From an uncultured delta proteobacterium (GTDB lineage Bacteria; Myxococcota_A; Polyangia; Fen-1088): 64,000 nucleotides of DNA. The notes beneath the pieces were generated by a model, which ran no database searches, was not told the origin of the DNA, and saw only the letters and a list, made by a program, of their open reading frames with translations. Below are positions 16,617 through 58,310 of this stretch, piece after piece. Position numbers and translations under genes: made by a program. The number at the start of each line of letters is the position of its first letter. The first letter of the stretch is position 1. The stretch spans positions 6,308-70,307 of the forward strand of contig CAVWIP010000017.1 of assembly GCA_963755125.1 (NCBI GenBank). The letters are read 5' to 3'.

Positions 16617-17981
16617 ATGCCTTCGGTTTTCAAACGCGGTGTTCGCTGGTACGCGAAATACAAGGACGCGACGGGGCGGTGGCGCACCCGGCCGACGACG
16701 GCCGACACCAAGACCGACGCCAAGCGGTTGGCCACTGACCTCGAACGCCAAGCCGAGCGCCACCGGCTCGGCTTGGAACCGCTCCCTACCGACGACGGCA
16801 CCACGCTCGGCGACTTGCTGAGCTGGTGGGAGACGACGTACTTCAAGCAGAGCCCCGCCTATGCGAAGAGCTGCGGCACATTCCGCCGTCACCTAGTCGG
16901 GTCCAACCTGTCGAAGAGCTCAATACGCGAAGTGACGACGGGCAGGGTGGAGCAGTTCATCCAGGCGAAGACGCGCGAGCTGGCTCCCCAGACAGTGAAC
17001 CACCTGCGCAGCTTCCTCTGTCGCGCCTTCAGCGCCGCCCGGCGCGCCGGCAAGGTCACCCAGAATCCGGTCCTCGACGTGAAATGTCGGCGCGTGCCCA
17101 AGCGCCTCCCAACGTTCCTGACCCTGGAGGAGGTTCCGCGCGTCCTGCTCGCGCTCCCCAGGCGCTGGCGGCCACTCTTCGCCACGGCCATCTACTCCGG
17201 GCTGCGCAAGGGCGAGCTGCTCGGGTTGCGGAAGACCGACGTGGATCTCCCGCGGCGGCTCATTAGCGTTTGCCGCTCGTACGCGCGCGACACCACCAAG
17301 GGCGGGCACGCGGAGGCGGTGCCCATCGCCTCCGAACTGGTGCCGTACCTCGAAGCCGCCATCAAACAGTCCTCGTCCGAGTTGGTCTTCCCAAACGAGG
17401 ACGGCTCGATGATGTCCGAGGAGGCGTCGCTCCAGGAACTGCTGCAGTCGGCGCTCGCCCGCGCCGGGATCGTGACCGGCTACAGCCACATCTGCCGACG
17501 GAAGGGATGCGGGCATTCCGAGGTGGCGAAGGACGCCGACCTGCGGCGTTGCCCGAAGTGCAAGATGAAGCTCTGGCCGCGGGCGCTGGTGCGGAAGATC
17601 CGCTTCCACGACCTGCGCCACACGACCGCGTCGTTGCTCATGATGGCGGGCGCGAATCCGGCGGCCGTTCAGCGCATCCTTCGCCACAGCGATCCGCGCA
17701 TCACGACTGAGGTTTACGGCCACCTGGCACCGGAATATCTCCGTCGAGAAATCGATCTCCTGTCCTTTGGCAAGCCCGTGAACGACACCGGAAACGCTTC
17801 CGCAAGCTCACCGAAAAACGATCCGTTTGGTGCATTAGTGGTACAAGAACCGAATGATGCACTGATCGGCGGATCCAGTGGATCTCGGAGCCCCCTGGAA
17901 ATGCAGGGGTTTTCGCTTGAGCGCGAGACGGGGCTCGGACCCGCGACCCTCGGCTTGGGAAGCCGATGCTCTACCAACTGA
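16617..17981 (+). CDS. tyrosine integrase (phage integrase family); 3' tail reads across tRNA-Gly on opposite strand
   Basis: catalytic R..HDLRHT..R..Y region (IRFHDLRHTTASLLMMAG, EVYGHLAPEY); no stop until 17981 so last ~60 codons overlap tRNA 17920..17992. Confidence 0.8.
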   Translation: MPSVFKRGVRWYAKYKDATGRWRTRPTTADTKTDAKRLATDLERQAERHRLGLEPLPTDDGTTLGDLLSWWETTYFKQSPAYAKSCGTFRRHLVGSNLSKSSIREVTTGRVEQFIQAKTRELAPQTVNHLRSFLCRAFSAARRAGKVTQNPVLDVKCRRVPKRLPTFLTLEEVPRVLLALPRRWRPLFATAIYSGLRKGELLGLRKTDVDLPRRLISVCRSYARDTTKGGHAEAVPIASELVPYLEAAIKQSSSELVFPNEDGSMMSEEASLQELLQSALARAGIVTGYSHICRRKGCGHSEVAKDADLRRCPKCKMKLWPRALVRKIRFHDLRHTTASLLMMAGANPAAVQRILRHSDPRITTEVYGHLAPEYLRREIDLLSFGKPVNDTGNASASSPKNDPFGALVVQEPNDALIGGSSGSRSPLEMQGFSLERETGLGPATLGLGSRCSTN

Positions 17982-17992
17982 GCTACTCGCGC
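17920..17992 (-). tRNA. tRNA-Gly(CCC), 73 nt, no encoded CCA; atypical T-loop TCCGAGC
   Basis: minus-strand GCGCGAG TA GCTC AGTTGGTA GAGC A TCGGC TTCCCAA GCCGA GGGTC GCGGG TCCGAGC CCCGT CTCGCGC T: 7-bp acceptor, D arm, anticodon CCC, U73 discriminator. Confidence 0.6.
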
Positions 17993-17993
17993 A
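17955..17993. repeat. 39-bp direct repeat (tRNA-Gly 5' half), left copy; putative att core
   Basis: identical to 58272..58310. Confidence 0.6.
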
Positions 17994-18026
17994 AACGTAA
18001 TGTTTTCAAACTGTTATCTGTACTTC

Positions 18027-19256
18027 TTAGCCCCCGTTATGTGCCCCTGTAACCACAGCGTAACCAACGGTACCGTTCTGCGTCCCCGGACAGCCTATTG
18101 ATACCACGTCCCCACCGGAGTGCGAAAGGTCTACCCGGACGGCATCGAAGTCCTCTTCCTTGAAGTGCTCGGGTCGAAGATGCGCGTAGCGTTCCGTGGT
18201 GGTCACGCTGGCATGCCCAAGGATCTTGGAGAGCTTCTCCAGCGAGTGGCCATCCATCACCCACAGGCTCGCGAAGGTGTGCCTGGTGGCCTGGTACCAC
18301 GAGATGGGCGGTAGCTTGCAAGCCTTCAGCGCCTTCGCAAGGTTGCTTCGTAGGGAGTGGGCACGCATGAAGGTTGAGGGTCGCTTTGCCGTTCCCCCAC
18401 GCGTGGGACACGTAGGAACGAACAACATCCCCTCGCCTCCGGTCTTGAGCTTCCACCGCGCCAAGATGGGTGCCAGGGCATTCTGCAAGGGCACGATGCG
18501 GGGGTCGTCATCCTTGAGCGGGGCCAGCCTCCCGTCCTTCACCTGTTGTGTTACGTGGATTCGCCGGTTGGCTAGGTCCACGTCCTGCCAGGAGAGCCCC
18601 AGTACCTCGCCTGTTCTCAGTCCCGCCAGTGCCCCCACGGCGAACGCCACGTCGTAGGGCTCGCTCAAGGCCCGGAACACCCGTTCGACATCCGATATCT
18701 TCTCCAGGAATGGCGTGTTGGTGGTATCCAGCTTGGAGCGATACAGCCTTCGTACCGAACGAGGAAGCAGGGAGACAGGATTCACCCGTGCGAAGCCCTG
18801 TTCGATCACCTCCGCGAAGAAGGTGGAGAACAGGCGGATGCAATGTCCTACGGTTGTGGGGTGCATCCCCTCACTGAGCTTGCGTTCCACGAAACGGCGC
18901 AGGCTTGTCGAATCCACCTCGGTTGGCTTGCAGGCCCCGAAGAAGGGATCGAGATGCTTGCGCCATCGGCAACGATCATCGCGCCAGGCCCGATGAGTCT
19001 GCTCGCGCCGGTCGAGCCAGTCCTTGGCCAAGTTCTTCAAGCTCGGGGCCGTCTTGAGTTCGACGGGCATCCTATCCCGCCCTGCACGCGCATCTGCGGT
19101 GAGCACGTCCAGCATCTTCTTGGCTTCGTCCTCGGTGGGATACCCTCCCTTCGTGCACACCCGCCCTGCTACACGCCACTTGATCCAGAAGTTTCCGGGG
19201 CCGCGCTGGTAGACGCAGCCTTGCCCGCTGGGCCTTTTTCGTTTCTTTCGTGCCAT
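18027..19256 (-). CDS. tyrosine integrase (phage integrase family)
   Basis: start MARKKRKRPSGQG with AAGGAG RBS; R..HTFAS..R..Y catalytic region (ATRHTFASLWVMDG, TTERYAHL); 3' end 34 bp from tRNA 5' end. Confidence 0.85.
   Translation of the reverse strand: MARKKRKRPSGQGCVYQRGPGNFWIKWRVAGRVCTKGGYPTEDEAKKMLDVLTADARAGRDRMPVELKTAPSLKNLAKDWLDRREQTHRAWRDDRCRWRKHLDPFFGACKPTEVDSTSLRRFVERKLSEGMHPTTVGHCIRLFSTFFAEVIEQGFARVNPVSLLPRSVRRLYRSKLDTTNTPFLEKISDVERVFRALSEPYDVAFAVGALAGLRTGEVLGLSWQDVDLANRRIHVTQQVKDGRLAPLKDDDPRIVPLQNALAPILARWKLKTGGEGMLFVPTCPTRGGTAKRPSTFMRAHSLRSNLAKALKACKLPPISWYQATRHTFASLWVMDGHSLEKLSKILGHASVTTTERYAHLRPEHFKEEDFDAVRVDLSHSGGDVVSIGCPGTQNGTVGYAVVTGAHNGG
18044..18075. repeat. ~32-bp repeat cctgtaaccacRgcgtaaccaacggtaccgt (also 58126..58158; partial 58661..58690); encodes integrase C-terminus, candidate arm-type site
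   Basis: direct comparison of the three loci. Confidence 0.45.
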
Positions 19257-19368
19257 GGTCTCCGCTCCTTTCTTTGTCCGCGACCTGGACGAGACCAGCG
19301 GCGCAGGGCCTGTCCGTCCCGTCCTCGGTCCTGTTGCCCTGATAAAGATCCTCGACGCCTGACCAGAT

Positions 19369-19690
19369 TCAAGCTGATCGCAGCTTGGCCACCTTGTCGG
19401 CGATGGTCTCGCGGTCGGTTCCATGCAACCGCGCCATGTCCACGCGCACGGTGTTGCCGATCTTGACCGTCGGCACCTCGCCCCTCTTCACCCACCGGCG
19501 CATCGTGGGAACGCTGACCTTGAAGGCGGTAGCTGCTTCCGTGATGGTCACGAGGGCAGGGGGCAGGGCGGCCCGCAAGCTTTCCAGCTTGTCTGTGTTG
19601 TCGGTGACTGCACGCTCCAACGCCGCGAGCCGCGTGGGGATATCCCCCATGGCCGAGAACAAGGCAGCCAAGTTCTGCGTGTCGCTCATC
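19369..19690 (-). CDS. excisionase-family HTH protein
   Basis: C-terminal FKVSVPTMRRWVKRGEVPTVKIGNTVRV HTH; start MSDTQNL (alt. M14); adjacent to integrase. Confidence 0.5.
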
Positions 19691-21307
19691 GGCTCACCAC
19701 CCAACGTGGAGCCGCAAGCGTACCAAGACGACACGGTCACCCAGAGCAGCGGCGTCGAGGACAACAGCTTCTCCCAGATCTTGGCACCCCTGGGCGGCTT
19801 GACGACGAGCAGCACCCCCGACGAGATCAATGCAGCCGTGCGCACCTGGGCCACCGGTGTGGTCGACTTGCCGCCCGTGGAGCGGGTGACAGCCAGGGCC
19901 GAGGCGGTCCGCCTCTTGAAAGATGTGAGCGTGCGATCAGCAGCAGCCCTGGTCGATGCGGCGCTTGCCGAGGCGCTTGCAGCCAAGCAGGACGAACCAG
20001 ACGGCGACGACGCGCCGATCTCGACTGGACAGTTTGCCGAGGTCGAGCCGTGGCCGGACCCCGTGGACGGGCAGGACCTCATTAGAGAGCTGGAGTCATT
20101 CGTCCGCAGGTTCTTGATTTTGCCCAGCGAGCACGCCTACATGGCTTTGGTTCTCTGGGCGCTGGCGACGCACGCGCACGACCTGTTCCAGCTTTTCCCG
20201 ATCTTGGTGATTTCCAGCCCCGTTCCGGGAAGCGGCAAGACCACGGTCCTGACGGTGTTGTCCGCGCTGGTGCCCAAGCCGTTCTTCACCAGCAACGCGA
20301 CCGCGGCATCATTATTCCGTGCAATCGATGACTTCCACCCCACGGTGACGATCGACGAGGCTGACAGTTTCTTGATCGGCAACGAGGCCCTGCGCGGCTT
20401 GCTCAACTCTTGCCACCTCCGCGCTTACGCTTTCGTGACCCGCGCCATTGGCACGTTCTCGACATGGGCGGCCGTGGTGCTCGCCCTCATCGGCAAGGTG
20501 CCCAAGACGGTCGAAGATCGCGCCATCATCATCCCGATGCAACGGCGTGCGCCGCACGAGCAGGTCGAGCGCTTCCGTCAGGACCGGCTCCACGAGTTTG
20601 AACACTTGCGTCGGAAAGCTGCCCGCTGGGTGCAAGATCATGCCGAACAAATCCCGACGGCCGATCCCGAGATTCCCGACGAGATCTCGCGTGACAGAGC
20701 GCGCGACAACTGGCGCGTTCTCCTCGCGCTTGCAGATGAAATTGGTGGCGATGTTGCCCGCCGTGCGCGAGAGGCGGCAGTGGCGCTGTCGAGAGCCGAC
20801 GAGGAGTTCGACGAGGACCCGGCTACGCTGCTTCTGCGTGACCTGCAAGGGCTCTTCCACCATCGGTGCGCGGACCGCCTCGAGAGCCAGGAAATCGTGA
20901 ACAGCCTAGTCGCGATGCCAGATCATCCTTGGTCCGCCTACAACCATGGGCAACCCCTGACCACACGAGGCTTGGCAGTGATACTGGGGCTATTCCGCAT
21001 CAAGCCCCAGAAGTGGTCGGTGACGGAAGCTGGAAGACGGATATCGAAGCGGGGCTACCTGCTTTCAGATCTAAAGGACACGTTCGCCCGCTACGTGCCG
21101 GCTCCGGCTGGCCCGCTGCCCGAGCCGACTGAGCCCAACGAACCGCCCCAAGCGCCCCATCCGCCCCAGGTGCCACCGCTGCCGGAGCCCACGGAATCGC
21201 CAGAGCCAGTGCCCAACGAACCGCCCCAAGCGCCCCAAGCGCCCCCGCCGGAACCTGCGAAGAAGAAGACCAAGCCAGTCATTCCGTACTCTAGGGCCCG
21301 GTCGTGA
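19649..21307 (+). CDS. P-loop NTPase, DUF3631/VirE/phage-primase C-terminal-like, with Pro-rich PEPTEPNEPPQAP C-terminal repeats
   Basis: Walker A VISSPVPGSGKTTVLTVL; Walker B-like TVTIDEAD; start uncertain (overlaps xis 5' end). Confidence 0.4.
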   Translation: MAENKAAKFCVSLIGSPPNVEPQAYQDDTVTQSSGVEDNSFSQILAPLGGLTTSSTPDEINAAVRTWATGVVDLPPVERVTARAEAVRLLKDVSVRSAAALVDAALAEALAAKQDEPDGDDAPISTGQFAEVEPWPDPVDGQDLIRELESFVRRFLILPSEHAYMALVLWALATHAHDLFQLFPILVISSPVPGSGKTTVLTVLSALVPKPFFTSNATAASLFRAIDDFHPTVTIDEADSFLIGNEALRGLLNSCHLRAYAFVTRAIGTFSTWAAVVLALIGKVPKTVEDRAIIIPMQRRAPHEQVERFRQDRLHEFEHLRRKAARWVQDHAEQIPTADPEIPDEISRDRARDNWRVLLALADEIGGDVARRAREAAVALSRADEEFDEDPATLLLRDLQGLFHHRCADRLESQEIVNSLVAMPDHPWSAYNHGQPLTTRGLAVILGLFRIKPQKWSVTEAGRRISKRGYLLSDLKDTFARYVPAPAGPLPEPTEPNEPPQAPHPPQVPPLPEPTESPEPVPNEPPQAPQAPPPEPAKKKTKPVIPYSRARS

Positions 21308-26402: not shown

Positions 26403-26520
26403 CGCAGCTGCCGCAGGTGAGGTCAGGATGGCACTGTACGGTAACGATATCTTTGAGAGTGACGCTGCCTACGAACGATGTTTTGACGATGGAGTTGACC
26501 CGATTTGGTGGACGGTTTCG

Positions 26521-27405
26521 TTACGCAGCTTTCTTACCAGCTTTCTTCACTGAGTGCATCAGCTCAAATTCGATTGGGCTGTTGTAATTGAGCGCCGAAT
26601 GACGGCGGCAAGGATTGTAGAAGCCTTCGATGTACTCGCCAATCGAGAGGTTAGCTGCCTCCCAGCTTTCGAGATCGTCGATGTCTTCCAACTCGCGCTT
26701 GAGGGTCGCGAAGAAACTCTCGGCCACGGCATTATCCCAGCAGTCTCCCTTCCGGCTCATGCTGCATTCTATGCTTCCGGCTTCCAAGGCTTTGCGGTAG
26801 TCGTCGCTCGCGTACGTGCTGCCTCGATCTGAGTGGTGAACCAGGCCGCTGCCGGGCTGGCGTTGGCACAAGGCCATGGCCAGTGCCGCGAGCGCGAGGT
26901 GGCGATCGACATTCCGACTGGTCGCCCAGCCGACAACCCGCCTGGAAAACAGGTCGAGAATCACCGCGAGGTACAGCCAGCCTTGCTGCGTCCACAGAAA
27001 CGTGATGTCAGTGACCCACGACTGGTTTGGACGAAGCGCGGTGAAGTTGCGCTCCAGCACATTCGGCGCGATGGGGAAGCTGTGCTTCGAGTCGGTGGTC
27101 GTGCGAAAACGATGACGACAGCGCGCCACCAGCTTGTTTTCGCGCATCAGCCTGGCCACCCGCTTGCAACCCACCCGATCCCCGGAAGCTTTGAGGTCGG
27201 CATGAACACGGGGACTGCCGTATCGTCGCCGGCTCCCGTGATGAATCGCGGCTATCCGCTCGGACAGATCCTGGTCACGGCGTGCGTGCAACGAGGCGGG
27301 CCGTCCCTGGCTGGCGTAGTAGCCACTGGGCGAAACGGCCAAGACACGGCAGAGGACCGCGACGGGGAAGGCCACCTTCTCCTCGGAGATGAACGCAAAC
27401 CTCAC
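26521..27405 (-). CDS. IS3-family transposase OrfB (rve integrase core)
   Basis: HHSDRGSTYAS .. DNAVAESFFATLKRE DDE-region motifs. Confidence 0.85.
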   Translation of the reverse strand: MRFAFISEEKVAFPVAVLCRVLAVSPSGYYASQGRPASLHARRDQDLSERIAAIHHGSRRRYGSPRVHADLKASGDRVGCKRVARLMRENKLVARCRHRFRTTTDSKHSFPIAPNVLERNFTALRPNQSWVTDITFLWTQQGWLYLAVILDLFSRRVVGWATSRNVDRHLALAALAMALCQRQPGSGLVHHSDRGSTYASDDYRKALEAGSIECSMSRKGDCWDNAVAESFFATLKRELEDIDDLESWEAANLSIGEYIEGFYNPCRRHSALNYNSPIEFELMHSVKKAGKKAA

Positions 27406-27707
27406 GCGCTCTCCTTGGCGAAGAAGGTGGCCGCCCTTTTTAAAATCTCACGCTCCATGCGGAGGACTTTCACCTCGCGACGCAGATGCGAAAGTTCTTC
27501 CTTCTCGGCGGTCGTCAGGGCGCCAGCAGGGCCCTTGCCCTCGTCTACCCTCGACTGCCGATCCCACTGGTACACCAGGCTGCTTGCCACCCTGAAGTCC
27601 TTTGCTACCTGCGCGACGCTGCGTCCTGCACGGACGAGCGCCACCAAGTCTGCCTTGAACTCGCGCGTGTGCATGCGCCGGGATCGCTTCTTCTCTTTGT
27701 CCAACAT
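27402..27707 (-). CDS. IS3-family transposase OrfA (HTH)
   Basis: MHTREFKADLVALVRAGRSVAQVAKDF; -1 frame relation to orfB; candidate slippery run TTTTAAAAAG near junction. Confidence 0.8.
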   Translation of the reverse strand: MLDKEKKRSRRMHTREFKADLVALVRAGRSVAQVAKDFRVASSLVYQWDRQSRVDEGKGPAGALTTAEKEELSHLRREVKVLRMEREILKRAATFFAKESA

Positions 27708-28423
27708 GTGGTCACCTTTCTACGCCCATTTTCCTGAGCGAGGGTGTCCACCAAACCGGGTCAAGTCCACGAGAAGAAGCGGTTGTCCTCGATTGTCCTC
27801 CTCACGCTCCTCCAGAACCTTCATGATGTGATGGCCCTTGTCCTCAAGAAGGATCTCAACCTGGTTCCCAAAGAGGGCGCGCCCAAGCCCGCTCGGCTGA
27901 TGTACCACGCCATATGCCTACTGACTCGCTATCTCGCGAAAGAGGACATGCGCGACTTCGTCGCGCTCTGGGGGGCACAGCTTCACTACAAGGACAAGGA
28001 CTTCCGGGAGGAGGTTCGCCGGATCCTGAACTCGACCAAGAGTGGGATTCGCGCCGAATTGTCTCGGCAATTCATGTCGCTTGAGTCTGGGAGCGCGGAG
28101 CAGCTCAACGAGGCTTTTGATCGATGCAAAGCCGCTTTGAAACTCAAGGACGGCATCGATCCCTTCGAGACCTTCAAGGACCTAGATGAACAGGTGCCGG
28201 TGTTAGGGGAAGCTGATGATTGACTGAGGGGATCCCCGCATTTGGGAGTAGCAAGTGTTGATATTGTTGGGTCAGGGACCGGCGCGGTGGTGTGCAGGAG
28301 GTTGATGTTCTTGCCACCATCCACCGAGGCCCGCTGTTTTTCCGACGGTCGCTTCCAGGTATACTACCCCGCGTGGTTGATTGAGTGCCCATGGTTCCTG
28401 TCTCACGTGCAATCGGAGGCACC

Positions 28424-29551
28424 ATGTTGAAGGGTGTGTGTTCTGTCTTCGTGAAGCTGGCCATGGTGTTCGTGTTGGTATTCACCATCGGTGCAACCGG
28501 GTGCAGCGGTGGTAGCGGTGGCAGAGGAACGGATGCCGGCGGCGATGCGACTGGTGCTGCGACGCTGGAAGGGGTCTTCGTGCCGACGGGCAGCCTGACC
28601 GTGGCTAGGTTCGGCCAGACGGCGACGCTGTTGGGCAACGGGATGGTGCTCATTGCTGGCGGGGCTGGTTCGAGCGCGGAGCTGTACAACCCAAACGCCA
28701 GAACGTTCACCCCCACCAGCAGTATGACAACGGCAAGACAGAGCCATACGGCGACGTTGTTGCCGAACGGGATGGTGCTCATCGCTGGCGGAGATGAACT
28801 CGCCAGCACCGAGCTATACGACCCAAACGCCCAGACTTTCACCGCCACCGGCAACATGACCGTGGCGAGACAGGGGCACACAGCCACGCTGTTGCCGAAC
28901 GGAATGGTCCTCATCGCTGGCGGAGACGAACTTGGCAGCACCGAGCTATACGACCCCAATGCCGGGACTTTCACCGCCGCCGGGAACATGGCCGAATCCA
29001 TGCATACGGCAACGTTGTTGCCCGATGGGGAAGTGCTCATCGCCAGCAGCTACGCTGGCGGCGTGAATGCCGAGTTGTACGACCCAGTGGCCGGGACATT
29101 CACGGCCACAGGTAGCCTGTCGACGGCGAGGGAAGGCCACACGGCATGTTTGCTGCCTAACGGCAAAGTGCTCATCGCCGGCGGACGGAATTACGATAAC
29201 AGCGGCTCGCTGCAGTTCCTTGCGAGCGCGGAGCTATACGACCTGACAGTCGGGGCATTTGCGCCAACCGGCACGATGTCTGTACCAAGGCAGTACCACA
29301 CGGCGACGTTGCTGACGAGCGGGAAGGTGCTCATCGCCGGCGGACTCAGTGACGGCGGGGATCTCGCAAGCGCGGAGCTATACGACCCAGAGGCTGGGGC
29401 ATTTGGAGCAACCGGCAGCATGTCCGTAGCAGGGGCATGGCACACAGCGACGTTGTTGACGAGCGGGAAGGTGCTCATCGCCGGCGGCGGCTTTGCCGAT
29501 TACGAGACTCTCTTGCTCACGCCCCTCGCAAGCGCGGAGCTGTACGAATAG
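28424..29551 (+). CDS. Kelch-repeat beta-propeller lipoprotein, paralog 1
   Basis: GGAGG RBS + ATG shared with paralog 2; lipobox FTIGATGC; ~7 repeats AELYDPxxGTFTxTGxMxxARxxHTATLLxNGxVLIAGG. Confidence 0.65.
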
Positions 29552-41992: not shown

Positions 41993-44900
41993 GTTTGCAA
42001 ACCCTCCAGCGACAATTCTACCCTTATCGCAAAGCCCTCTTTGGGCTTAACATCGACATCGATGGAGTAGTCCTCTTGCCCCAGGTCGTACTTGGCGATC
42101 TTGTGTAGCTTCGCAAACCCACTGCCCCCCTCCTGACGAATGACGCCTGTCGCCCTCTTTGCTGTTTCAAGGAGAGACCGAGCCGTCCTCTGCAAGTCCT
42201 CGACCGAGATGTCGGGGCCCAAGGCATTACGTACCTCAATAACCAAGCGAGCGCAATGCGCGAATATCCGGCCCTGCACCCGTGGTCGGTCAAGCTGGGC
42301 GTGTCTCACAGCGTTCTCGAAGAGAATAAAGAGCAGGTCAATGAAGGCTGTAAAGCTACTCCCCTTCATCATAAGAGATTCGTCCCCGATCTCCATTTCA
42401 GGGAACTCCGCGAGGTTAGGAAAGCAGTTTCGCAGGATCTCGCTCGACGCGTAGGCAAGAAGCGTAAGCTTGTAGTCAGGTACTGCCTCCTCCTCCCCGA
42501 CTTTGAACCAGGCCGCAATGGCACCAAGTTCGTTCGCGACGCTCGTACGACAGCGCGCCAGAGCCGCAGAAAGGTCTGCGTTGCGCGTGCCAGGGGCCAA
42601 TTCTCCGAGCGCCCTCTCCAAGTCGTCGATTGTCTGAAGGAGGCGCTGGCAAAGCTCCCCGGTGATTCGGTCTCTGATCTTCGCTAGCTGAGCCTGGGTC
42701 CTTTCCCAGAGGTTCGCAAACACGGCTTCAACGAACCGCTCGACGTCGGCTATCTGAAGTACGGCGAGGTATAGATTGACGGCATCAGCGTCGGTGTAGT
42801 CGAAGTCGAACATCCCAGCAGCTTTGCTCCGCGACTTGATCTGGAGCCAATCCTCCTTTACCTCCTGGATCAGCCCGTCGATCGTGGCAGAGAAGCGGCG
42901 AAACGCATCGTTGATCTTGTCGCGGACCGCAGCGGGGCTGGACAGCGTTAAGGGCTTGCTCCAATGCGCGTTGTACTCGTATTGTGCTGTTCTTGCGTTC
43001 TTTCGGGTGATCAGTGCCTCTCTCTCGAACTGGCTTCTGATTTGGCCCGATAGAGTCCCGTGCCGAATCCGGACGCTCAGGTACGAATCGAGGCCAAATT
43101 CGTTGCTCGAAATGAACCTGGCGCGAAGATCGTCGAAGAGATCCTGGAACTGCTGCAGAGTCGCATCGCTAATGACAAGTACGGGCTCCTCTGTGTCGAA
43201 TCTCAGGTCCTTCAGAGCGAGCGTTTCTCGGAGCCTTCCGGTCAGCAACGAGAACGCCCGGAAGCGCAGAAACTTGTCGTAAAACCCACGGTCGAGAGAG
43301 CGAACGATCCCCGACGTATCGACGTGGATTTTGCTCTCGCCATATCGTTGGAGCGCCCGACGGATCACCAGGGCTTCCGTTCTTCGTGCAATTTCCGTGG
43401 AGGATGCGTCGGAGGAAGCAGGATCTATGGCGAGGAGCGTCTGGCATATTGCAATCCGCTCACGCTCAAGGTCCTCCGAGCTACCAAACGCGACGGAGTA
43501 GTCCATCACCTCCGGAATGCAAACGTGTCGAAGAAAGTGAATGTAGCGCCTGGCTGGGAAACTGTCTTTGCGTGTGAAGAGTTCGCTCGGCTTCCGCGCG
43601 CCGGCTTGCGAAAGAAAGTCGTCATAGGCGGCGTAGGTAGACCGAAAGGAGTCTTGTCTTCGGCGTGCCTGTCGCGGGATCGAGAAGAGAATGGGCCAGA
43701 CAAGCGAATCTTGTCGGGTTGGGGGATGGGCCTTGCATGCATCGATGATTTCTTGGATAGGGAAGGCCCCTATACCGTTGGGCCGCTCCAGGTACGCGTC
43801 CACAGTAATCTCGGCCGCTTCGGCGGGCTGCCCTGCGGACAGGTAGGCAGAGCAGAGACCGAGCGACGCTTCATGGCGGAGCGGCATGCCCCCCTGGGGG
43901 TGTGAAAGGAGGGCTGAATAGTGCACAATTGCGCGACGATACTCTCCACGCAACACAGCATGACGAGCTTCGTACTTCTCTGCGCGCGGCGGCCAGATCC
44001 CTTCGAAGGAAGTGGGGGCGCGATCTCTGAATAGGTCGACGACTGGGCCGTGCTCGTACCAAGAAGCGATCTTGTCGAGAAAGGCTGGCTTGTCGTTCGG
44101 AGGCAGAATCTCCGAGAAGCGGGGGGTAATGGCGCTTGCGGCCAGAGCGCCGAAGACCTCCATGTCAAGGCCGGTTTTTATGCATCCTTGGACTGCGAGA
44201 AATGCCAGGACCTGGTCGGCGAACCTGGTCCCGTCGAGCGTGTGCGTGAGTTTCCGCAACCACGCGACGGCCTCGGTTGTGTCCGGGCCTCGCGCTAGCA
44301 CCGAAATCACGGCGCGAACCAATGGCTCGGCCGACCCGAACCTGGCGCCGTCCGGCTCCCGCCCGAGATAGAGGCAGCTTTTCGCATAGAGCTCAACGAA
44401 CTCGAATGCGTCCGTTCCCCTCGCGAGCACGTCTTCGGCCTTGAGGGCCGCCTCTTCGTGGGCACCACTGGTGTAGGCGTTTAAGACGTATGCGAGAAAC
44501 GGGTCCGGAGGCGTCGCCGGAAGCGCGGAACGCGGATTTGCTAAGAGATTCAACAGCTCCAACCGCTTGTCCTTCACGGCTTGGGCGAGGGAGCCAATGC
44601 ACTCACGGAGGGCCCCTCGGGCGTGCGTTTCCGGGTCGCTGGCGCAGATCTGAAGGCACCGCAAATAGCAGCAATACCGATCCACCATCGGGTAGCTCGC
44701 CTCCCGATGGAGCACATGTCGAACATCCGGCTTGAATCGGAGGCTGGAGAAATCGAATTGGAAACGGAAGGCGCTAATGGCGCCCTTTATCTCTGGCTGG
44801 TCAGATCCTGGGACCCCCGCACAAAGGGTGTCTATTGCACTCTCATAGTTCGAGGCCGAGAGTTCCTCCTCCACCCTTTGACTAATGAGCGTTGCGTGGA

Positions 44901-45486
44901 CGCGCACAAATTCACTGCCGGCTTGTTCAGCCAGATCGGCAAGGTGGGCTCGATTTTCCTTGAGCCCACCCTGCTTCTGGGCCAGGAGCAGCTCAGCTCT
45001 GAGCGTCCAAAGGGACTGGCCTAGTCGGTCGACGATTTGTCGGAGCGTTGCTGCGGCTTCGGCGAGATCTACCGTGAGCAGGGCTGCCTCGAACCGGTCC
45101 CGCAATGCAATGAATCCAGAAAGACGATCAGCATACCTCTTTAGGACGGCGCAGTTCCACCGCAGTTCATCGGCAAGAGAGTTGCCGATCGGCAGGACCT
45201 GCGCTCTCGTGAAGTCGGCGTAGGTCTGCGGAAAGGCAGTGCCTGTGATCAGACGTTCTGCGGCGGGCTGGTGATACCTGAGCACACGACCAATAAGCTT
45301 GATGGACTCCGCTTTTAGACTGATCCGGGCTGCCGCCCCACGCCTCGTAGGTTCAAGCAGACGCAGATATCGTACGGGGATGAACCCTGGCGCATTCTCG
45401 CCCTTTTCTCGAAGCCTGCGGACCTCTCTGCGTTTCGCGCGGCGCAGCACGCCTGCCCGCTTTGCTTGTCTCTTCAGTGCCACCAC
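41989..45486 (-). CDS. dtcA: large histidine-kinase-like protein (helical N-terminal region + C-terminal HATPase_c), DtcA-like
   Basis: GHKL motifs ILFENAVRHA (N box), EVRNALG, GGSGFAKLHKI (G box); ~900-aa helical N-terminus; GTG start uncertain. Confidence 0.5.
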   Translation of the reverse strand: MVALKRQAKRAGVLRRAKRREVRRLREKGENAPGFIPVRYLRLLEPTRRGAAARISLKAESIKLIGRVLRYHQPAAERLITGTAFPQTYADFTRAQVLPIGNSLADELRWNCAVLKRYADRLSGFIALRDRFEAALLTVDLAEAAATLRQIVDRLGQSLWTLRAELLLAQKQGGLKENRAHLADLAEQAGSEFVRVHATLISQRVEEELSASNYESAIDTLCAGVPGSDQPEIKGAISAFRFQFDFSSLRFKPDVRHVLHREASYPMVDRYCCYLRCLQICASDPETHARGALRECIGSLAQAVKDKRLELLNLLANPRSALPATPPDPFLAYVLNAYTSGAHEEAALKAEDVLARGTDAFEFVELYAKSCLYLGREPDGARFGSAEPLVRAVISVLARGPDTTEAVAWLRKLTHTLDGTRFADQVLAFLAVQGCIKTGLDMEVFGALAASAITPRFSEILPPNDKPAFLDKIASWYEHGPVVDLFRDRAPTSFEGIWPPRAEKYEARHAVLRGEYRRAIVHYSALLSHPQGGMPLRHEASLGLCSAYLSAGQPAEAAEITVDAYLERPNGIGAFPIQEIIDACKAHPPTRQDSLVWPILFSIPRQARRRQDSFRSTYAAYDDFLSQAGARKPSELFTRKDSFPARRYIHFLRHVCIPEVMDYSVAFGSSEDLERERIAICQTLLAIDPASSDASSTEIARRTEALVIRRALQRYGESKIHVDTSGIVRSLDRGFYDKFLRFRAFSLLTGRLRETLALKDLRFDTEEPVLVISDATLQQFQDLFDDLRARFISSNEFGLDSYLSVRIRHGTLSGQIRSQFEREALITRKNARTAQYEYNAHWSKPLTLSSPAAVRDKINDAFRRFSATIDGLIQEVKEDWLQIKSRSKAAGMFDFDYTDADAVNLYLAVLQIADVERFVEAVFANLWERTQAQLAKIRDRITGELCQRLLQTIDDLERALGELAPGTRNADLSAALARCRTSVANELGAIAAWFKVGEEEAVPDYKLTLLAYASSEILRNCFPNLAEFPEMEIGDESLMMKGSSFTAFIDLLFILFENAVRHAQLDRPRVQGRIFAHCARLVIEVRNALGPDISVEDLQRTARSLLETAKRATGVIRQEGGSGFAKLHKIAKYDLGQEDYSIDVDVKPKEGFAIRVELSLEGLQT

Positions 45487-46257: not shown

Positions 46258-46260
46258 CGT

Positions 46261-53818: not shown

Positions 53819-53994
53819 GTGACTACGTTCGCCAGAAATCCCGTCGGTGTCAAAGGGTTGAGCAGGCTGGCCATGCGGACATTTGCGTCAGCGAGGATGC
53901 GCTGGGAAGGCGTTTAGATCGCTGTTGGCGAGGGCGATGCCGTAGAAACAATTTGGTCTGATTGCAGCCGAGGAATTCCTCCGACTCCTGCGGA

Positions 53995-55440
53995 TCAGAA
54001 CGTCACGGCATTTTGGAAGCTTGTCAGGGCCGCTCCATTCAGGCGCATCTGATATTCTTCCGTGTAGGTCAAGATCGGGTATGCCCCTGGTGCTGCGTAT
54101 GGATTGCCCCCTGCTACGGTACCATCCTTAATCACCTCGCCAAGGTAGACATTGCCATTGAGGTCGTAGAATGTGATGTAGGAAGGGGTTGTCCTCGGTG
54201 ATGGACGAGGATCGGTCGCTACATAGGTATTTACCCCGTTAATCATTGAAACACTACCCAGGGCCATCGTGTAAGTTGTGCTGTCGCTGCCAACCAAAAT
54301 GCCCCCAGCATTCATGAGTGCGGCAATCGTGGTGCCAGTGGCAACGGGTTTGGGGGTGCTGCCAGATGCAGCTTGTATTGAAGAATAGTCGAACACAAAA
54401 TAGGTGTCCCCAATCTCGGTTGAGGTAAATTTCATATAGGACGCGCCTGCCGCCCAGGTTGCACCAGGGGCGAGCAGGGGTGTCGTATTGTAGAACAGTG
54501 GACTAAAGTAATTGACCAAATCCGAGAAGGAACTGGATGCTACATTCCCAGTTAGCGGAACCACGGAGTAACCAGAGTTGATGTAGCTGTTGACGATTGT
54601 GGTACCAGTCGCGTCAAGAATGTCGGTTCGGACGCCCCCGGAGATTCCTTCAACAACACCCGCTGGATAGGTGACATTTCTGATCCACGCAGGGCCTGAG
54701 CTGACCACGATCTTACCACCAACAAGGTAACGATCTGGCGCATAGCCGCTGGGGATAGGGATCTTTGCGATATCAACTAAAGCCGTATCGGTAACTTTTT
54801 GAGTGCCAGTCGACGGTGACGCAGTCAATTGAGCAGAGTTTTGGGCAAAATAGTTCGTGCCCGATACTGGAATTCCAGTGTAAGGCAGGGAGTAGTAGCA
54901 TTCATAGGAAGCGTTGGGAGCCATCGTGAAACTCTCATACGTGGCTTGGTCCTGACTTAGGGCAGGAGGAGCGCCGGAAGAGCCGCCACCGCTTGTCGTG
55001 CCGCCAGCGTCAGACTCGCCTCCTATGCCAGAAGTGCCGCCTGTGCCGCCGCCACCCGAGCCACCGATGGGTGCATCCGGCTGAGTGGCAGGGGCGTCTG
55101 GCACCCCGGCATCGCCGCCGCCGCCAACGGCTGTTGCGCCACCGACAACTGTCGTTGCGCCAGAGGCTGCACTGCCGCCCTGCGGCGCAATACCACCGGA
55201 TGCCGTGATTCCGCCGACAATCGTACTGCTGCTGACAACCGTAGTTCCACCACTTGGCGCAGTACTTCCACCCTGCGCGCTGATTCCGCCAGCGCCGCCG
55301 CCGGAAAGAGTCGTTGACCCGCCGGAGTTACTCGGACTTGTCTTTGTGCTCGAGCTGCAACCGCTGGCCAGCGTTGCAAGAGAGATCCCAAAAGCTCCGA
55401 TGAAACACAACCTGAAACGATTGGGTCGGTCCGCGTTCAT
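53995..55440 (-). CDS. Gly-rich lipoprotein of unknown function
   Basis: signal MNADRPNRFRLCFIGAFGISLATLASGC shared with 59777..61339. Confidence 0.45.
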   Translation of the reverse strand: MNADRPNRFRLCFIGAFGISLATLASGCSSSTKTSPSNSGGSTTLSGGGAGGISAQGGSTAPSGGTTVVSSSTIVGGITASGGIAPQGGSAASGATTVVGGATAVGGGGDAGVPDAPATQPDAPIGGSGGGGTGGTSGIGGESDAGGTTSGGGSSGAPPALSQDQATYESFTMAPNASYECYYSLPYTGIPVSGTNYFAQNSAQLTASPSTGTQKVTDTALVDIAKIPIPSGYAPDRYLVGGKIVVSSGPAWIRNVTYPAGVVEGISGGVRTDILDATGTTIVNSYINSGYSVVPLTGNVASSSFSDLVNYFSPLFYNTTPLLAPGATWAAGASYMKFTSTEIGDTYFVFDYSSIQAASGSTPKPVATGTTIAALMNAGGILVGSDSTTYTMALGSVSMINGVNTYVATDPRPSPRTTPSYITFYDLNGNVYLGEVIKDGTVAGGNPYAAPGAYPILTYTEEYQMRLNGAALTSFQNAVTF

Positions 55441-55907
55441 GATGTTCGCTCCTAGTCTATGGGCGGTCTGAGGTTGAAACAGGCAGAAATCAGTCACCTG
55501 CTCGACGGGGAGAGAGAGTGTACAGCTTTTCTGGTGCATGGGGTGTCAGAAAGATCGCTGGGGATTTCAGGTCACCTGGGAAGATGCACATGCGCACCCG
55601 GCCAAGGCAGCGGAAGGGACTTCTTCGTCATCGGGATCCTCCCGACCAAGAATCGCAATATCGTACGCCTTGCGCAACCGCATGCGACGGTGGAATGCGC
55701 CTCAAGAGCCACAGCCGCATGGGACCTGTGTCCGGCCCGCCGTCCATCAGCGCCGCTTGGGAGCATCACCGAACCGGGATACAATCATTCCCATCCCGGC
55801 AACAATGCCGACGGCGGCATCAAGCGCGATGAGCGCGCCCTTGACCGTGTTCCCGGCGGGGTTGAGCACGAGGTTGTTGGCTCCTGCCAAGTTCGCACGT
55901 GACAGGT

Positions 55908-56618
55908 TCAGTTTTCCGCCGTTTTCCCGCAACATTTCTTGTACTTCTTCCCCGATCCACACGGGCACGGCTCATTCCTGCCGATCTTGGGAGTACTGCG
56001 CCTTGGCTCGGTGGTAACTATGTCCTGTCCGTGGGCTTCGCGGCCTGCCCGGAAATAGCGATAGGCATACGCGATGCCAGCTGTCATGTGCGCAATGACA
56101 TCTTCGCGCTGCTCAAGGCTGATCGGCCCCGGTCGCATCTTCGGGTCTTTGTCATGCTCGTGGTGGAGCATCATCGTCGGAATCAAGCAACCGCCGTTCT
56201 CTTCGTCATTCAGAAGTTTCGACCAGCCACCGGGCCGCATCTTCACGCCTCGCATGAAGCCGTTTGCCCAGTCGTTGCCACTTGCGAATCCGTGCTCGTC
56301 TTCCAGCAGGAGCGGCAAGTGGACGTCGTCTTTGAAGAACGCATCAGCGATGGTGTTCCAGTGCCGCATCATGAGGGCAAAGAACTCGTTGGCCTCGTCG
56401 CGACTGGCGAATCCGGAGTGGTTTGACATGTCGCCGCCGAAGACCTCCGGCAAGTACTCGCTCGGCATCACGGTCTCCGGGCCCACGACCAAAGCTGCGA
56501 AGAACCCATCCAGTTGCTCCAGGTTCATCGCTTTGTCACCCCCGCGGCTTTCGAGAAGGTCTCCGAGGCGGTCCAACTCGGCGTCGTTCAAGGGCTCGCT
56601 GGCGGTCTGATTTTTCAT
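55908..56618 (-). CDS. yecA: YecA/UPF0149-family protein with C-terminal SEC-C metal-binding motif
   Basis: C-terminal [18 protein letters not shown]. Confidence 0.6.
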
Positions 56619-56747
56619 GGGGATTCCGACTACTCTGGGTAACCATTTACCACACGAAGCCCATCACGAGCTGCCATCGGTGCCCTGGTGGAACCCTCGC
56701 GAAACCTGGATTGAAACCCCTTCCGACAGGCACTACCGTTTCTTCGC

Positions 56748-57914
56748 GTGCCTCCTACCGCCTTCATCCACCTGGACATGGACGCGTTCTTCGCGTCGGT
56801 GGAGCAACGCGATTCTCCCGAGCTGCGAGGCAAGCCCGTCATCGTAGGCGGCGACCCGCGACGCGGAGTCGTGCTGGCGGCCTCGTATGAGGTGAGACCG
56901 TTCGGGGTGCACTCGGCCATGCCCATGGCAGTCGCCATGCGACGCGCACCCAAGGCCATCGTGGTTCCGCCGCGCATGACAGCGTACGAGGAAGCGAGCG
57001 ATGCCGTCTTCGCGATCATGAGCAAGGTCACGCCGCTCATCGAACCGGTCTCGCTTGATGAGGCATTCCTGGACGTGACTGCATCAGTCAAGCTGTTCGG
57101 CACTCCCAGCCAGATAGCCTCCGACCTGCGAGCACGGATTGCATCTGAGGTGGGGTTGCCGTCGTCGGCTGGAATCGCGTCGGTGAAGTTTGTGGCCAAG
57201 ATCGCATCTGACCTGGCCAAGCCGAACGGGCAGAAGGAAGTCGCACCAGTTGAGGCCCGCGAGTTTCTCGCCCCGTTGCCCGTCGGACGTCTGTGGGGCG
57301 TGGGTCCGAAAACCGAGGCTGCTCTTGCAGACCTTGGACTTCGCACCGTCGGGCAGATTGCAGCTTCAGATCCAAATTGGCTCGACAAGCGCATCTCTGG
57401 TGGGCGCGATCTGTGGGAACTGGCATGTGGGATCGATCTGCGACCAGTTGTTCCCGACCGTGAGGCGAAGAGCATCGGTACCGAGGACACATTTGATGAG
57501 GACCTGGCTGGCACGGATGCGCTGCTACCCCACGTGCACTCGCAGGCTCTGCGCGTAGGACGGCGTCTGCGCCAGGCGGGCAGAAAAACAACGGTGGTGC
57601 AGCTCAAGGTGAAGCTGGCGGACTTCACGCTGCTCACGCGCCAGACGACGTTGCACGAACCGACAGACGATGGTCAGGAGATCTATCGAGCCGCAAGCGC
57701 TCTCCTGCTGGCGGAGAAACTGAAACAGAAGGTCAGGCTCACGGGTGTATCAGCGCAGTCGCTCGTCGGTGAAGGCGGGCAGTTGCCTCTCTTTGATTCT
57801 GACCGCCGCGTTGGTCGGCTCAACGCCGTCCTCGACCGCATCCACGACAAGTTCGGCTCAGATGCGGTGACCACGGCAGACTTGCACGCAGCACCAGGCA
57901 AGAAACGGGAGTAG
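56748..57914 (+). CDS. dinB: DNA polymerase IV (Y-family)
   Basis: IHLDMDAFFASVEQRD..GKPVIVGG N-terminus and overall Y-family layout; GTG start. Confidence 0.85.
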   Translation: MPPTAFIHLDMDAFFASVEQRDSPELRGKPVIVGGDPRRGVVLAASYEVRPFGVHSAMPMAVAMRRAPKAIVVPPRMTAYEEASDAVFAIMSKVTPLIEPVSLDEAFLDVTASVKLFGTPSQIASDLRARIASEVGLPSSAGIASVKFVAKIASDLAKPNGQKEVAPVEAREFLAPLPVGRLWGVGPKTEAALADLGLRTVGQIAASDPNWLDKRISGGRDLWELACGIDLRPVVPDREAKSIGTEDTFDEDLAGTDALLPHVHSQALRVGRRLRQAGRKTTVVQLKVKLADFTLLTRQTTLHEPTDDGQEIYRAASALLLAEKLKQKVRLTGVSAQSLVGEGGQLPLFDSDRRVGRLNAVLDRIHDKFGSDAVTTADLHAAPGKKRE

Positions 57915-58271
57915 AGGGACGATCTGCTTCCGAATGCTGTGCTGAGTTAGCTATGTCCGTTTGAATTGATGGCGGCCCCGCAAACCTGGGTCACGCGTAG
58001 TAGGGGGTAGAGTGGGGTGGGGTGATGTTCCTGGCTGAGCACAACCAAGGGCAGGGGATGCTGGCCATCAGGAAGGTCGATCCGAGCCGTGCGACACACC
58101 TCTGATGACGTCGTTTTCACCTGTAACCACGGCGTAACCAACGGTACCGTATTCGGTACCAAACCGGAGGGATCACGGATGACCTGTTCCCTTCGTGGTG
58201 TTCAAAAATCCCCTATAAAACAAGGGGGTTTGAGCACAAAGGGTGATCATCCGTGATCATGTCCAGGTGAG

Positions 58272-58310
58272 TTGGGAAGCCGATGCTCTACCAACTGAGC
58301 TACTCGCGCA
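58272..58310. repeat. 39-bp direct repeat (partial tRNA-Gly 5' half), right copy; putative attR
   Basis: identical to 17955..17993; tRNA similarity stops after anticodon loop. Confidence 0.6.

Follow-up and report, generated by a model that had tools for sequence, protein, structure and literature searches.

A probable 40-kb integrative island at the 5′ half of a tRNA-Gly(CCC) gene in Myxococcota, and the layout of its integrase family

The phage Mx9 reportedly has one attB in the 5′ region of a tRNA-Gly gene, as Julien described in 2003, and Zhao and Williams are said to have presented a reverse-orientation tRNA-integrating element in 2002. The Mx9 genome (OQ709411) carries tRNA-Gly(CCC) positions 1–42, and because this is the 5′ half of the gene through the anticodon loop, Mx9 also possesses a 5′-half attP. 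In reverse-orientation integrators, archaeal ones included, the partner in recombination is the 5′-distal part of the tRNA gene and the integrated element lies on the upstream side; such use is "considerably less frequent" than that of the 3′-distal part (PMC6563490). The Islander rules allow such a "5′ fragment upstream" configuration (PMC4383910).

The 64,000-nt stretch of DNA analysed here (the window) contains an interval, 17994–58310, that is very probably a 40,317-bp integrative island of a Myxococcota (Polyangia-type) genome, which entered tRNA-Gly(CCC) through its own integrase, IntR. It shares with Mx9 the phylum, the target isoacceptor and an att region entangled with the 3′ end of int, and because Mx9 carries the same tRNA half, the island is a new case of a known but rare kind. 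The two differ in that Mx9 is a 53-kb tailed phage whereas the island has no recognisable phage genes, and in that the Mx9 core lies inside the int ORF in antisense whereas the island core is placed 34 bp past the int stop on the same strand. The features of the target site are as follows.

17919–17992, minus strand: intact tRNA-Gly(CCC), the integration target (ARAGORN; Rfam tRNA model, 66.9 bits)
17955–17993, no strand assigned: left 39-bp core repeat, at the junction with the intact tRNA (exact match; sequence read directly)
58272–58310, no strand assigned: right 39-bp core repeat, the displaced tRNA 5′ half (exact match)

An exact-match search found the 39-mer TTGGGAAGCCGATGCTCTACCAACTGAGCTACTCGCGCA at both places with 0 mismatches between the copies, and no further copy with up to 3 mismatches in the window, the interior of the island included (0 expected from 100 shuffles). 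The repeat corresponds to tRNA positions −1 to 38, from the 5′ acceptor end to the entire anticodon loop, just as the first-pass annotation had read it, and the 5′ half of the tRNA-Gly(CCC) is now derived from the island. That annotation had also taken the repeats as the limits of an island of about 40 kb and had proposed a comparison with island-free strains, which bears it out. In four metagenome contigs (L082–L085), the window sequence up to 17993 is joined directly to that from 58272, with flanks 98–99.8% identical, a complete tRNA-Gly and only one 39-mer, so the intervening 40,317 bp represent a discrete insertion. Near-identical strains lack the island, which is thus polymorphic in the natural population. 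A fifth contig (L086) is an occupied variant of 92.7% identity with a 3.9-kb indel relative to the window.

The island is cleanly delimited, and its integration into the tRNA has the rare upstream polarity. It carries the tRNA 5′ part and sits on the upstream (5′) side of the restored tRNA-Gly, like the reverse-orientation integrators and opposite to the common 3′-side arrangement, and 9 related elements are placed likewise. In the terms of Islander (PMC4383910), there is a full tRNA with a same-strand 5′ fragment upstream, an integrase inside the interval, a length within 2–200 kb and a sporadic presence with an uninterrupted site in relatives. The locus further resembles Islander and TIGER cases in having an older neighbour at the tRNA, but this neighbour has no detectable fragment of its own and would consequently not be called an array member. 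The key oddity of the locus, a polarity reversed with respect to the tRNA, had gone unremarked in the first reading.

The interval could also be a fixed scar of an old insertion, its presence and absence stemming from old lineage divergence or from homologous recombination between the 39-bp repeats rather than from an integrase active today. Such a history would agree with the lack of a match for the excised circle or the attP junction in viral contigs, with a defence operon already damaged by an insertion sequence and with the decay of an adjacent family member. It is nevertheless improbable: the two 39-mers do not differ, both int and xis are intact, the arm clusters described below agree at 30/31 positions, and the right-side flanks of the empty and occupied forms are 99.0–99.8% identical, arguing for a recent event. 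Moreover, RecA-dependent deletion is inefficient at repeats as short as 39 bp.

The preferred reading, a site-specific insertion, is consistent with the two genes that open the island next to the tRNA.

18027–19256, minus strand: IntR, intact tyrosine integrase, 409 aa from MARKKRK (Pfam Phage_integrase)
19369–19620, minus strand: xis, excisionase with a helix-turn-helix, start codon uncertain (Pfam HTH_17; NCBIfam TIGR01764)

The full-length IntR retains the R, K, R, H and Y positions conserved in its family, and its stop codon precedes the 5′ end of the tRNA by 34 bp, both genes being on one strand. It has more than 2,000 homologues, the best being 95% identical over 100% of the length, and the integrases 95% and 89% identical to it are both integrated adjoining a full tRNA-Gly, a context uninformative about attP. 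Among the phages of IMG/VR, no relative above 34% identity was found. Pfam gave no match for an arm-binding domain, and in the AlphaFold model residues 13–57 form an N-terminal domain of three strands plus a helix (pLDDT 83–89); the best structural matches of the model were Tn1549 Int and full-length lambda Int, with TM-scores of only 0.32–0.40. The xis product scored 35.3 against the TIGR01764 "excise" profile (cut-off 28.8), as a recombination directionality factor does, and its adjacency to int is conserved in 24 loci. Int and xis genes had been listed inside the island, and Pfam and NCBIfam located both, the latter being of the excisionase type.

The attachment region on both sides of the core comprises the following features.

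18046–18076, no strand assigned: putative integrase-proximal arm-type sites (GGTACC, GGTTAC, GGTTAC on the minus strand; motif comparison)
58120–58160, no strand assigned: putative distal arm-type sites, the 31-bp motif and then one more GGTACC (motif comparison)
18004–18016, minus strand: A+T-rich module TAACAGTTTGAAA, 12–24 bp upstream of the tRNA (family motif YAA-N4-YTGA)
58166–58266, minus strand: structured spacer from the core to the distal arm, with a 12-bp perfect inverted repeat (folding z-score −6.05)

The recurring motif of about 32 bp in the first-pass annotation is real, but its coordinates needed correction: it spans 31 bp at 18046–18076 and 58120–58150, 30/31 identical, rather than starting at 18044 and 58126. 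The motif search suggested there returned the two end copies and one stray 1-mismatch pair at 54557. The idea that the motif represents arm-type sites gained weight from other elements. Pairs of 7-mers with an 11-bp period (18-bp pair) occur 69–79 bp upstream of the tRNA and again 117–132 bp inside the far repeat, and these positions hold for the window as well as for five independent elements (L003, L015, L018, L028 and L050). The pair sequence differs among elements and matches within each element, and this co-variation at conserved positions supports the arm-type reading. The TGGTTAC pairs are candidate arm-type sites that the N-terminal domain may bind.

The organization recalls lambda in several respects: a tyrosine recombinase whose predicted N-terminal domain may be of the arm-binding type, clustered direct arm repeats that flank the core on both sides and are distinct from it in sequence, an excisionase next to int, and, on the stretch from the core to the proximal arm, a motif resembling the IHF consensus YAANNNNTTGATW. 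It departs from lambda in that the core is half a tRNA gene, the putative arm sites are 7-mers with the period given above, and the proximal arm overlaps the coding tail of int, covering the final codons of the IntR ORF.

The motif of the A+T module keeps a constant place, −20 to −26, in 22 of 47 family ends (1.7 expected); the A+T content upstream of the tRNA climbs to 0.65. The module resembles an IHF-type site and may function as one; alternatively, it could be a promoter element. A role purely as a tRNA promoter is weakened by its occurrence next to the tRNA 3′ end in 2/5 relatives of the opposite (3′) polarity and by the int stop codon that it often contains. In the spacer, a terminator-like hairpin (58210–58226) is enclosed by the 12-bp inverted repeat, and a structured spacer recurs across the family (mean folding z = −2.3).

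From these sequences we infer the mechanistic steps, including catalysis by IntR, binding and strand exchange. Insertion would proceed via conservative site-specific recombination by a lambda-type IntR with core-binding and arm-binding parts. The attP of the island would carry the tRNA 5′ half (positions 1–38), not the 3′ half, and strands would be exchanged in or beside the 7-nt anticodon loop, the exact point of exchange being an estimate. After insertion, the element would lie upstream and provide the tRNA 5′ half and everything ahead of it, leaving the original 5′ half at the far end. Read along the tRNA strand, the reconstructed attP would run from the int 3′ end with three arm sites through the A+T module YAA-N4-YTGA to the 39-bp core, followed by the structured, terminator-like spacer and four distal arm sites, with the predicted junction GGGTGATCATCCGTGATCATGTCCAGGTGAG-[39-bp core]-AACGTAATGTTTTCAAACTG. 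A host bending protein might act at the A+T module, and excision would require the adjacent excisionase. Core-type sites are not obvious, because the attP sequence past position 38 does not mimic the anticodon stem. A doubtful further idea is that exchange at the central, symmetric anticodon stem-loop allows one attP geometry to carry either tRNA half, which would account for the family members of 3′ polarity that are nested at two or more places within the 5′-polarity clade.

Beyond both ends of the island, the window contains two further integrase loci.

58311–58729, minus strand: remnant of an older element of the same integrase family (Pfam; tblastn with family members)
58311–58345, minus strand: A+T-rich module of the remnant
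58366–58385, minus strand: the remnant's own arm pair
Within 58311–58729, minus strand: about 120 C-terminal integrase codons of the remnant
16617–17981, plus strand: IntL, a second intact tyrosine integrase, on the tRNA 3′ side (36% identical to phage Mx9 Int)

The 90-aa ORF right of the repeat (58361–58633, minus strand), which had been interpreted as an integrase C-terminal fragment of an older, decaying element, matches the C-terminal end of Pfam Phage_integrase, and tblastn with family members as queries extended the remnant integrase to about 58729. The interpretation is reinforced by an end structure normal for the family and an arm pair of its own, GGGCAGAGAATGGGCAGAG, unlike that of the island. 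The island-free contigs carry the remnant in unchanged form. This tRNA would already have been the target of an earlier family member with another arm-site specificity, of which about 420 bp are left, and the new island would have been inserted beside it. No outer repeat of the older element was detectable up to 64000, and no third copy of either tRNA half, such as the far end of the older or the left element, rose above shuffles in the whole window; a candidate degenerate core near 58827 (GGGAAGCC) scored under the shuffle mean. A third copy of the arm motif, previously reported at 58661, was rejected as an arm site. The match (58676–58691) comprises 15/16 bases only, with a local alignment score of 27 (shuffles: mean 18, maximum 25), and it lies within the remnant integrase CDS without the pair structure, while the remnant's own arm pair differs.

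IntL, on the other side of the tRNA, was overlooked in the first reading; its ORF runs antisense into the tRNA-Gly. The Mx9 Int aligns with IntL at E = 8e-44 and falls outside the IntR family, to which it shows a local match of 38% over 53 aa. How a tRNA comes to be expressed is a question that this locus poses, its entire upstream region being mobile DNA and, in this case, the 3′ side too. Neither the intact tRNA nor the displaced half has a consensus sigma-70 promoter upstream, a point against the preferred reading; transcription of the rebuilt tRNA might start from the tRNA's own promoter in the int 3′ end or arrive by read-through from int.

A survey of 80 genome loci related to IntR showed that the layout is widespread. 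A same-strand tRNA just after int, within 35–145 bp, was found in 39 of the 80 and additionally in L028, with 13 tRNA species by anticodon. Of 30 loci checked, 21 have 6–26 bp separating the int stop codon from the tRNA, and in 3 more the stop codon overlaps the tRNA; the distance in the window is 34 bp. A far repeat beginning at the tRNA 5′ end was recognized in 9 loci, reaching position 37–40 in 5 and being shorter (21–31) in 4; in five elements with full-length int, the far copy ends at the anticodon loop. Judged from these sequences, with about half of the sampled members adjoining a tRNA 5′ end, the layout, with a conserved attP plan, is a rule of a large Myxococcota integrase family. Earlier reverse-orientation reports concerned single elements, whereas here about half of one sampled bacterial integrase family is involved. 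The family thus gives island-finding software a concrete calibration class and offers many candidate integrase/attB pairs for engineering myxobacteria.

The frequent pairing of int with a tRNA might instead indicate that family elements carry a complete tRNA after int as cargo, the far 39-mer being an unrelated partial duplication, and the tRNA in the island-free contigs does still adjoin an integrase remnant. This explanation is very hard to sustain. The empty site retains the complete tRNA while the island and its int are absent, and the far copy always begins at the tRNA 5′ end and stops at the anticodon loop in the five full-length-int elements. The 3′ side is bounded by a different element, that of IntL, and in L001, the closest relative, a separate 3′-side element on the same tRNA has duplicated the 3′ half. 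The latter repeat begins at the anticodon loop, so that the 5′-type and 3′-type repeats of L001 overlap in TTCCCAA only.

Co-transcription of int and tRNA is possible because the int stop is close to or overlaps the tRNA in the loci counted above. A doubtful extension is that the tRNA is wired to int, the rebuilt tRNA forming the 3′ end of the int message with no terminator between. If so, the int transcript of the integrated form would end in a complete, RNase P-processed tRNA and that of the excised form in a half-tRNA followed by the strong terminator hairpin; the state of att would then switch the fate of the int mRNA, much as in sib retroregulation of lambda.

The cargo identified within the island is listed below.

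19700–21307, plus strand: DUF3631 protein, start uncertain as the ORF overlaps the opposite-strand xis (Pfam DUF3631, E = 2.5e-38)
26490–27769, minus strand: IS3-family copy A, 1,280 bp (terminal inverted repeats starting TGGAGTTGACCC; CGA target duplication)
39872–41151, minus strand: IS3-family copy B, identical to A, inside the Detocs-like effector gene (AAG target duplication)
38966–45486, minus strand: Detocs-like operon (PADLOC PDC-M60 profile matches)
41989–45486, minus strand: Detocs-like gene A (PDC-M60A, E = 4e-101)
41531–41992, minus strand: Detocs-like gene B (PDC-M60B, E = 2e-36)
41143–41538 and 38966–39859, minus strand: receiver and PNP halves of Detocs-like gene C (PDC-M60C, E = 1e-25 and 3e-77)

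Primase-like genes had been announced in the island; the DUF3631 protein is there, but Pfam, PHROG and NCBIfam profile searches found no primase domain in it. No PHROG structural match for virion or packaging genes appeared among the ten largest unassigned island ORFs, and a Pfam scan of the ORFs revealed no conjugation genes inside the island, so that an identity as prophage or ICE was rejected.

The cargo may have accreted, since 40 kb exceeds the relatives and only int-xis is common to L001. The island is four to six times larger than the delimited family elements, which measure 3.6–10.5 kb in a survey whose 10-kb flanks permitted only small elements to be delimited. It is accordingly conceivable, though unlikely, that a small int-xis element (7–10 kb) grew by accretion of other elements or cargo with the help of insertion sequences and lost its internal att sites, the repeats then bounding an array. 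L001 matches at 86% across the tRNA, int and xis but departs beyond them, the occupied variant L086 carries its 3.9-kb indel, the two IS3 copies are identical and the G+C content inside the island varies from 0.55 to 0.64, all in keeping with piecemeal growth. Against it, the core has no internal copy at up to 3 mismatches, the island contains a single integrase, the arm motif is confined to the two ends apart from the stray pair at 54557, and the island-free contigs miss all 40.3 kb together, which indicates that the island moved, or was lost, as one unit at least once.

The IS copies anticipated in the first-pass annotation are the identical IS3-family pair. As for the Detocs operon named there, PADLOC assigned PDC-M60, which we take to be Detocs from its presumed architecture (TPR/kinase-like A, receiver-only B, receiver-plus-PNP C). 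All three genes are present, with Pfam matches to Response_reg (twice) and PNP_UDP_1, but the effector gene C is split, IS3 copy B parting the receiver from the PNP domain. This defence island carries an IS-inactivated Detocs-like system, and deletion of IS copy B plus 3 bp from the sequence restores a 429-aa effector ORF.

The stretch between 17955 and 58310 is a genuine tRNA-targeting genomic island of reversed polarity, carried by some strains and absent in near-identical ones; comparison supports its arm-type sites, and a decayed, older element lies next to it. The 39-mer TTGGGAAGCCGATGCTCTACCAACTGAGCTACTCGCGCA occurred in two exact copies in the window (17955-17993 and 58272-58310; 0 expected by chance), and no further copy was found there at up to 3 mismatches. 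The equality of the two repeats reported in the first-pass annotation was thereby borne out on re-inspection. The left copy lies in the sole tRNA gene in the window:

17919-17992, minus strand: tRNA-Gly(CCC), Rfam 66.9 bits

As had been described, the repeat runs from the 5' acceptor through the anticodon loop, spanning tRNA positions -1 to 38, that is, from the 5' end to the end of the whole loop; the repeat-to-repeat interval is 40,317 bp. Since the tRNA gene is read from the minus strand, the island to its right lies upstream of it. The intact tRNA owes its 5' half and upstream region to the island, and 58272-58310 is the old 5' half, now displaced. This polarity is opposite to the usual case, in which the 3' part is duplicated. 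Recombination at the 5'-distal part of tRNA genes is called "considerably less frequent" in a review (PMC6563490), which refers to Zhao & Williams 2002 and to a handful of archaeal elements, and the Islander rules (PMC4383910) permit a configuration with the 5' fragment upstream.

A metagenome collection was searched with the right junction (the final 8 bases of the repeat followed by 15 from the right flank), and the pattern was matched in six contigs (L081-L086). In four of these (L082, L083, L084 and L085) a complete tRNA-Gly(CCC) adjoins the junction, and BLAST against the window showed that sequence ending at 17993 runs straight into sequence from 58272 onwards with a single 39-mer. Right-flank identity to the window was 99.0-99.8% in all four, and left-flank identity was 98-100% in L083-L085 and 88% in L082 (BLAST). 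In contig L086 the site is occupied by a variant of 92.7% identity that differs by 3.9 kb at 53870-57742; L081, more distantly related, shows the same tRNA-plus-remnant arrangement. Some members of a natural population thus carry the island and others lack it, with the repeats as its exact bounds; alignment with island-free strains, which had been proposed as a check, upheld the delimitation of a ~40-kb island.

The recombination genes adjoin the tRNA:

18027-19256, minus strand: IntR, tyrosine recombinase of 409 aa (Pfam)
19369-19620: excisionase adjoining int (Pfam HTH_17; TIGR01764 above cut-off)

IntR shares its strand with the tRNA, and its stop codon falls 34 bp short of the tRNA 5' end. 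More than 2,000 homologues were found (the best with 95% identity over the full length), and every name or title seen indicated Myxococcota metagenome-assembled genomes. R214, K248, R325, H348 and Y357 were conserved in an alignment of 29 homologues, with Q322 replacing the first histidine; we take these to be the catalytic residues by comparison with lambda Int. The AlphaFold model (mean pLDDT 77) displayed three strands and a helix in residues 13-57 (pLDDT 83-89), a predicted fold with the pattern of arm-binding domains, and its best Foldseek matches were Tn1549 Int and full-length lambda Int.

The 32-bp motif of the first-pass annotation proved real at both island ends, with its coordinates corrected from 18044 and 58126 to 18046-18076 and 58120-58150. 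The copies are 30/31 identical and read GGTACC-N3-GGTTAC-N5-GGTTAC on the tRNA strand, the distal one carrying one extra GGTACC. The decisive evidence came from comparison. When the integrase-proximal 7-mer pair was sought throughout each delimited element, the window and L003, L015, L018, L028 and L050 each showed an 18-bp pair (0-3 mismatches) 69-79 bp upstream of the tRNA that recurred 117-132 bp inside the far repeat; elsewhere, just single stray 3-mismatch matches appeared, in the window and L050. The pair varies across elements (GGTTAC, GGCTAC, GGGCAC) and matches within each, as would be expected of arm-type sites recognised by an integrase domain specific to each element, in keeping with the role first proposed. 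The partial third copy, listed at 58661, was rejected as an arm site; it falls in the remnant's coding region.

Right of the right repeat, the annotated integrase C-terminal fragment was recovered as part of a decayed element with the order, on the tRNA strand, of integrase C-terminus, arm pair, A+T module and tRNA half:

58361-58729: remnant integrase C-terminus, ~120 codons
58366-58385: remnant arm pair GGGCAGAGAATGGGCAGAG
between the arm pair and the tRNA half: remnant A+T module CTAGCCTAACTAACTGAAAT

This arrangement is the normal integrase-proximal end of the IntR family, except that its arm specificity is another one, of the kind found in L076 and L078. The remnant predates the island, since it is kept unchanged in the island-free contigs; a truncated form occurs in the diverged L081. 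The idea of tandem, decaying elements at one attB is supported by these features, and no outer repeat of the remnant's element was detectable up to 64000.

Scanning one genome per species by alignment gave 80 IntR-family loci, all in Myxococcota metagenome-assembled genomes.

Layout of the integrase-family loci
Same-strand tRNA 35-145 bp past the int match: 39 loci, plus L028 (arm pair at -71)
Opposite-strand tRNA after int (classical polarity): 5 loci
Contig end too near to tell the layout: 7 loci
No tRNA adjoining int, mostly a separate Anaeromyxobacter branch: 28 loci

The same-strand tRNAs comprise Gly, Arg (three anticodons), Phe, Met, Thr, Lys, Leu (two), Val (two), Ser (two) and Asn. 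A far repeat starting at the tRNA 5' end was found 3.6-10.5 kb upstream in nine loci; it ended at position 37-40 in five and was shorter in the remaining four, where three of the integrases are truncated. The closest genome, MAG Myxococcales fen_1123 (L001; Int 89% identical to IntR, same tRNA target), bears an IntR-type element on the 5' side of its tRNA-Gly (7455-7528) and a separate 7.6-kb element on the 3' side, whose 46-bp repeat (15115-15160) begins at the anticodon loop. The 5'-type and 3'-type repeats there have only TTCCCAA, the 7-nt anticodon loop, in common, and this places the putative strand exchange at that loop. The classical-polarity loci (L013, L027, L042, L068 and L073) were nested at at least two places in the 5'-polarity clade of a neighbour-joining tree without bootstrap, which suggests repeated polarity switches; a similar arm pair was seen in L068. 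In L022 (11223-11298), the anticodon loop of the tRNA-Lys beside the integrase is 8 nt long, CTTTTTAA, with one extra T exactly at the inferred crossover region; inexact recombination could account for it, or a sequencing error in a homopolymer. The Anaeromyxobacter-type branch (L032-L035, L039, L051, L052, L061, L069 and L070), with no tRNA adjoining int, has an opposite-strand tRNA-Met 1.3-3.9 kb downstream of int.

The final 40 bp before the tRNA have an A+T content of 0.59-0.65 versus ~0.3 further upstream. Here YAA-N4-YTGA, which is TAACAGTTTGAAA in the window (18004-18016), kept a fixed position, between -20 and -26, in 22 of 47 ends, compared with 1.7 expected from shuffles and 0 in the control zone. 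The motif resembles the IHF consensus YAANNNNTTGATW. Two of the five opposite-polarity loci (L068 and L073) have it as well. In 21 of 30 loci checked the int ORF terminates 6-26 bp short of the tRNA, and in three more it extends into the tRNA; it often stops at the module's TGA or TAA. The module may therefore be a bending-protein site, the int end, a promoter, or several together. Native tRNA promoters in these genomes resemble TTGACN-N17-TAAGTA, and no such promoter was found ahead of the window tRNA. Past the displaced half the sequence is strongly structured: in the window z is -6.05, and a terminator-like hairpin (58210-58226) sits within a perfect 12-bp inverted repeat; across ten elements the mean z was -2.3 versus ~0 in internal controls.

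A second integrase approaches the tRNA from its 3' side:

16617-17981, plus strand: IntL, intact tyrosine integrase with canonical HxxR, H and Y residues

The IntL ORF enters the tRNA antisense. The protein is only 26% identical to IntR but 36% (E = 8e-44) to the Myxococcus phage Mx9 integrase, whose Cys-rich insert it also has. Because Replic_Relax (14239-15159) and weak TraD-like (11631-13910) proteins lie left of it, IntL probably belongs to a separate small mobilisable element. No 3'-half tRNA repeat was found in 1-17918, nor the far end of this element in the window. The tRNA thus has mobile DNA on either side. Mx9 (OQ709411) carries tRNA-Gly(CCC) positions 1-42 antisense within its int ORF (~20187-20228) and thus sets, in this phylum and for this tRNA, a precedent of an attP with the 5' half; its integration was studied experimentally (Julien 2003, cited in PMC10281127 and PMC6070905). 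Reversed-polarity tRNA elements are known (Mx9; Zhao & Williams 2002) but rare. The searchable literature yielded no report of them on such a scale, a large Myxococcota integrase family with 5' polarity at half of the sampled loci, many tRNAs and apparent occasional switches to classical polarity.

Within the island, the annotated int, xis, IS copies and Detocs operon all stood, the last as a Detocs-like system; the "primase-like" gene encodes a DUF3631 protein in which no primase domain was detected. The insertion sequences are:

26490-27769: IS3-family copy A, 1,280 bp, 3-bp target duplication
39872-41151: IS3-family copy B, identical to A, 1,280 bp, AAG target duplication

The Detocs-like (PDC-M60) operon has three genes, with a receiver plus PNP effector. 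Its defence function is probably lost, because copy B splits the effector gene (38966-41538) between the receiver and PNP parts; in silico deletion of the IS plus 3 bp brings back a 429-aa effector ORF. Other cargo encodes an AIPR/AbiU-like protein, an HNH protein, GH88, a metallophosphatase, UPF0149/SEC-C, DinB and two Kelch-repeat paralogues (28385-29551 and 32520-33734), which share ~75% DNA identity over 600 bp and have kindred repeats in L017 and L062. No phage structural genes were found in the island (PHROG comparison of its ten largest unassigned ORFs), and no close IntR relatives in IMG/VR.

Some similarities extend beyond the island. A 514-aa ORF in the island (53995-55539) and a 520-aa ORF in the right flank (59777-61339) have 5' ends (55309-55444 and 61208-61343) that are 79% identical over 136 bp; neither product had a protein-family match. 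A 177-bp stretch of the right flank (62559-62734), an intergenic region plus the start of a putative lipoprotein ORF with no Rfam match, is 82% identical to 13463-13638 in the flank of the unrelated locus L017. On the minus strand, 6276-8302 holds an AAA_21/AAA_15 ATPase (OLD- or AbiEii-type) with a small upstream ORF, in the left part of the window where G+C is low (0.57-0.59), possibly another defence locus.
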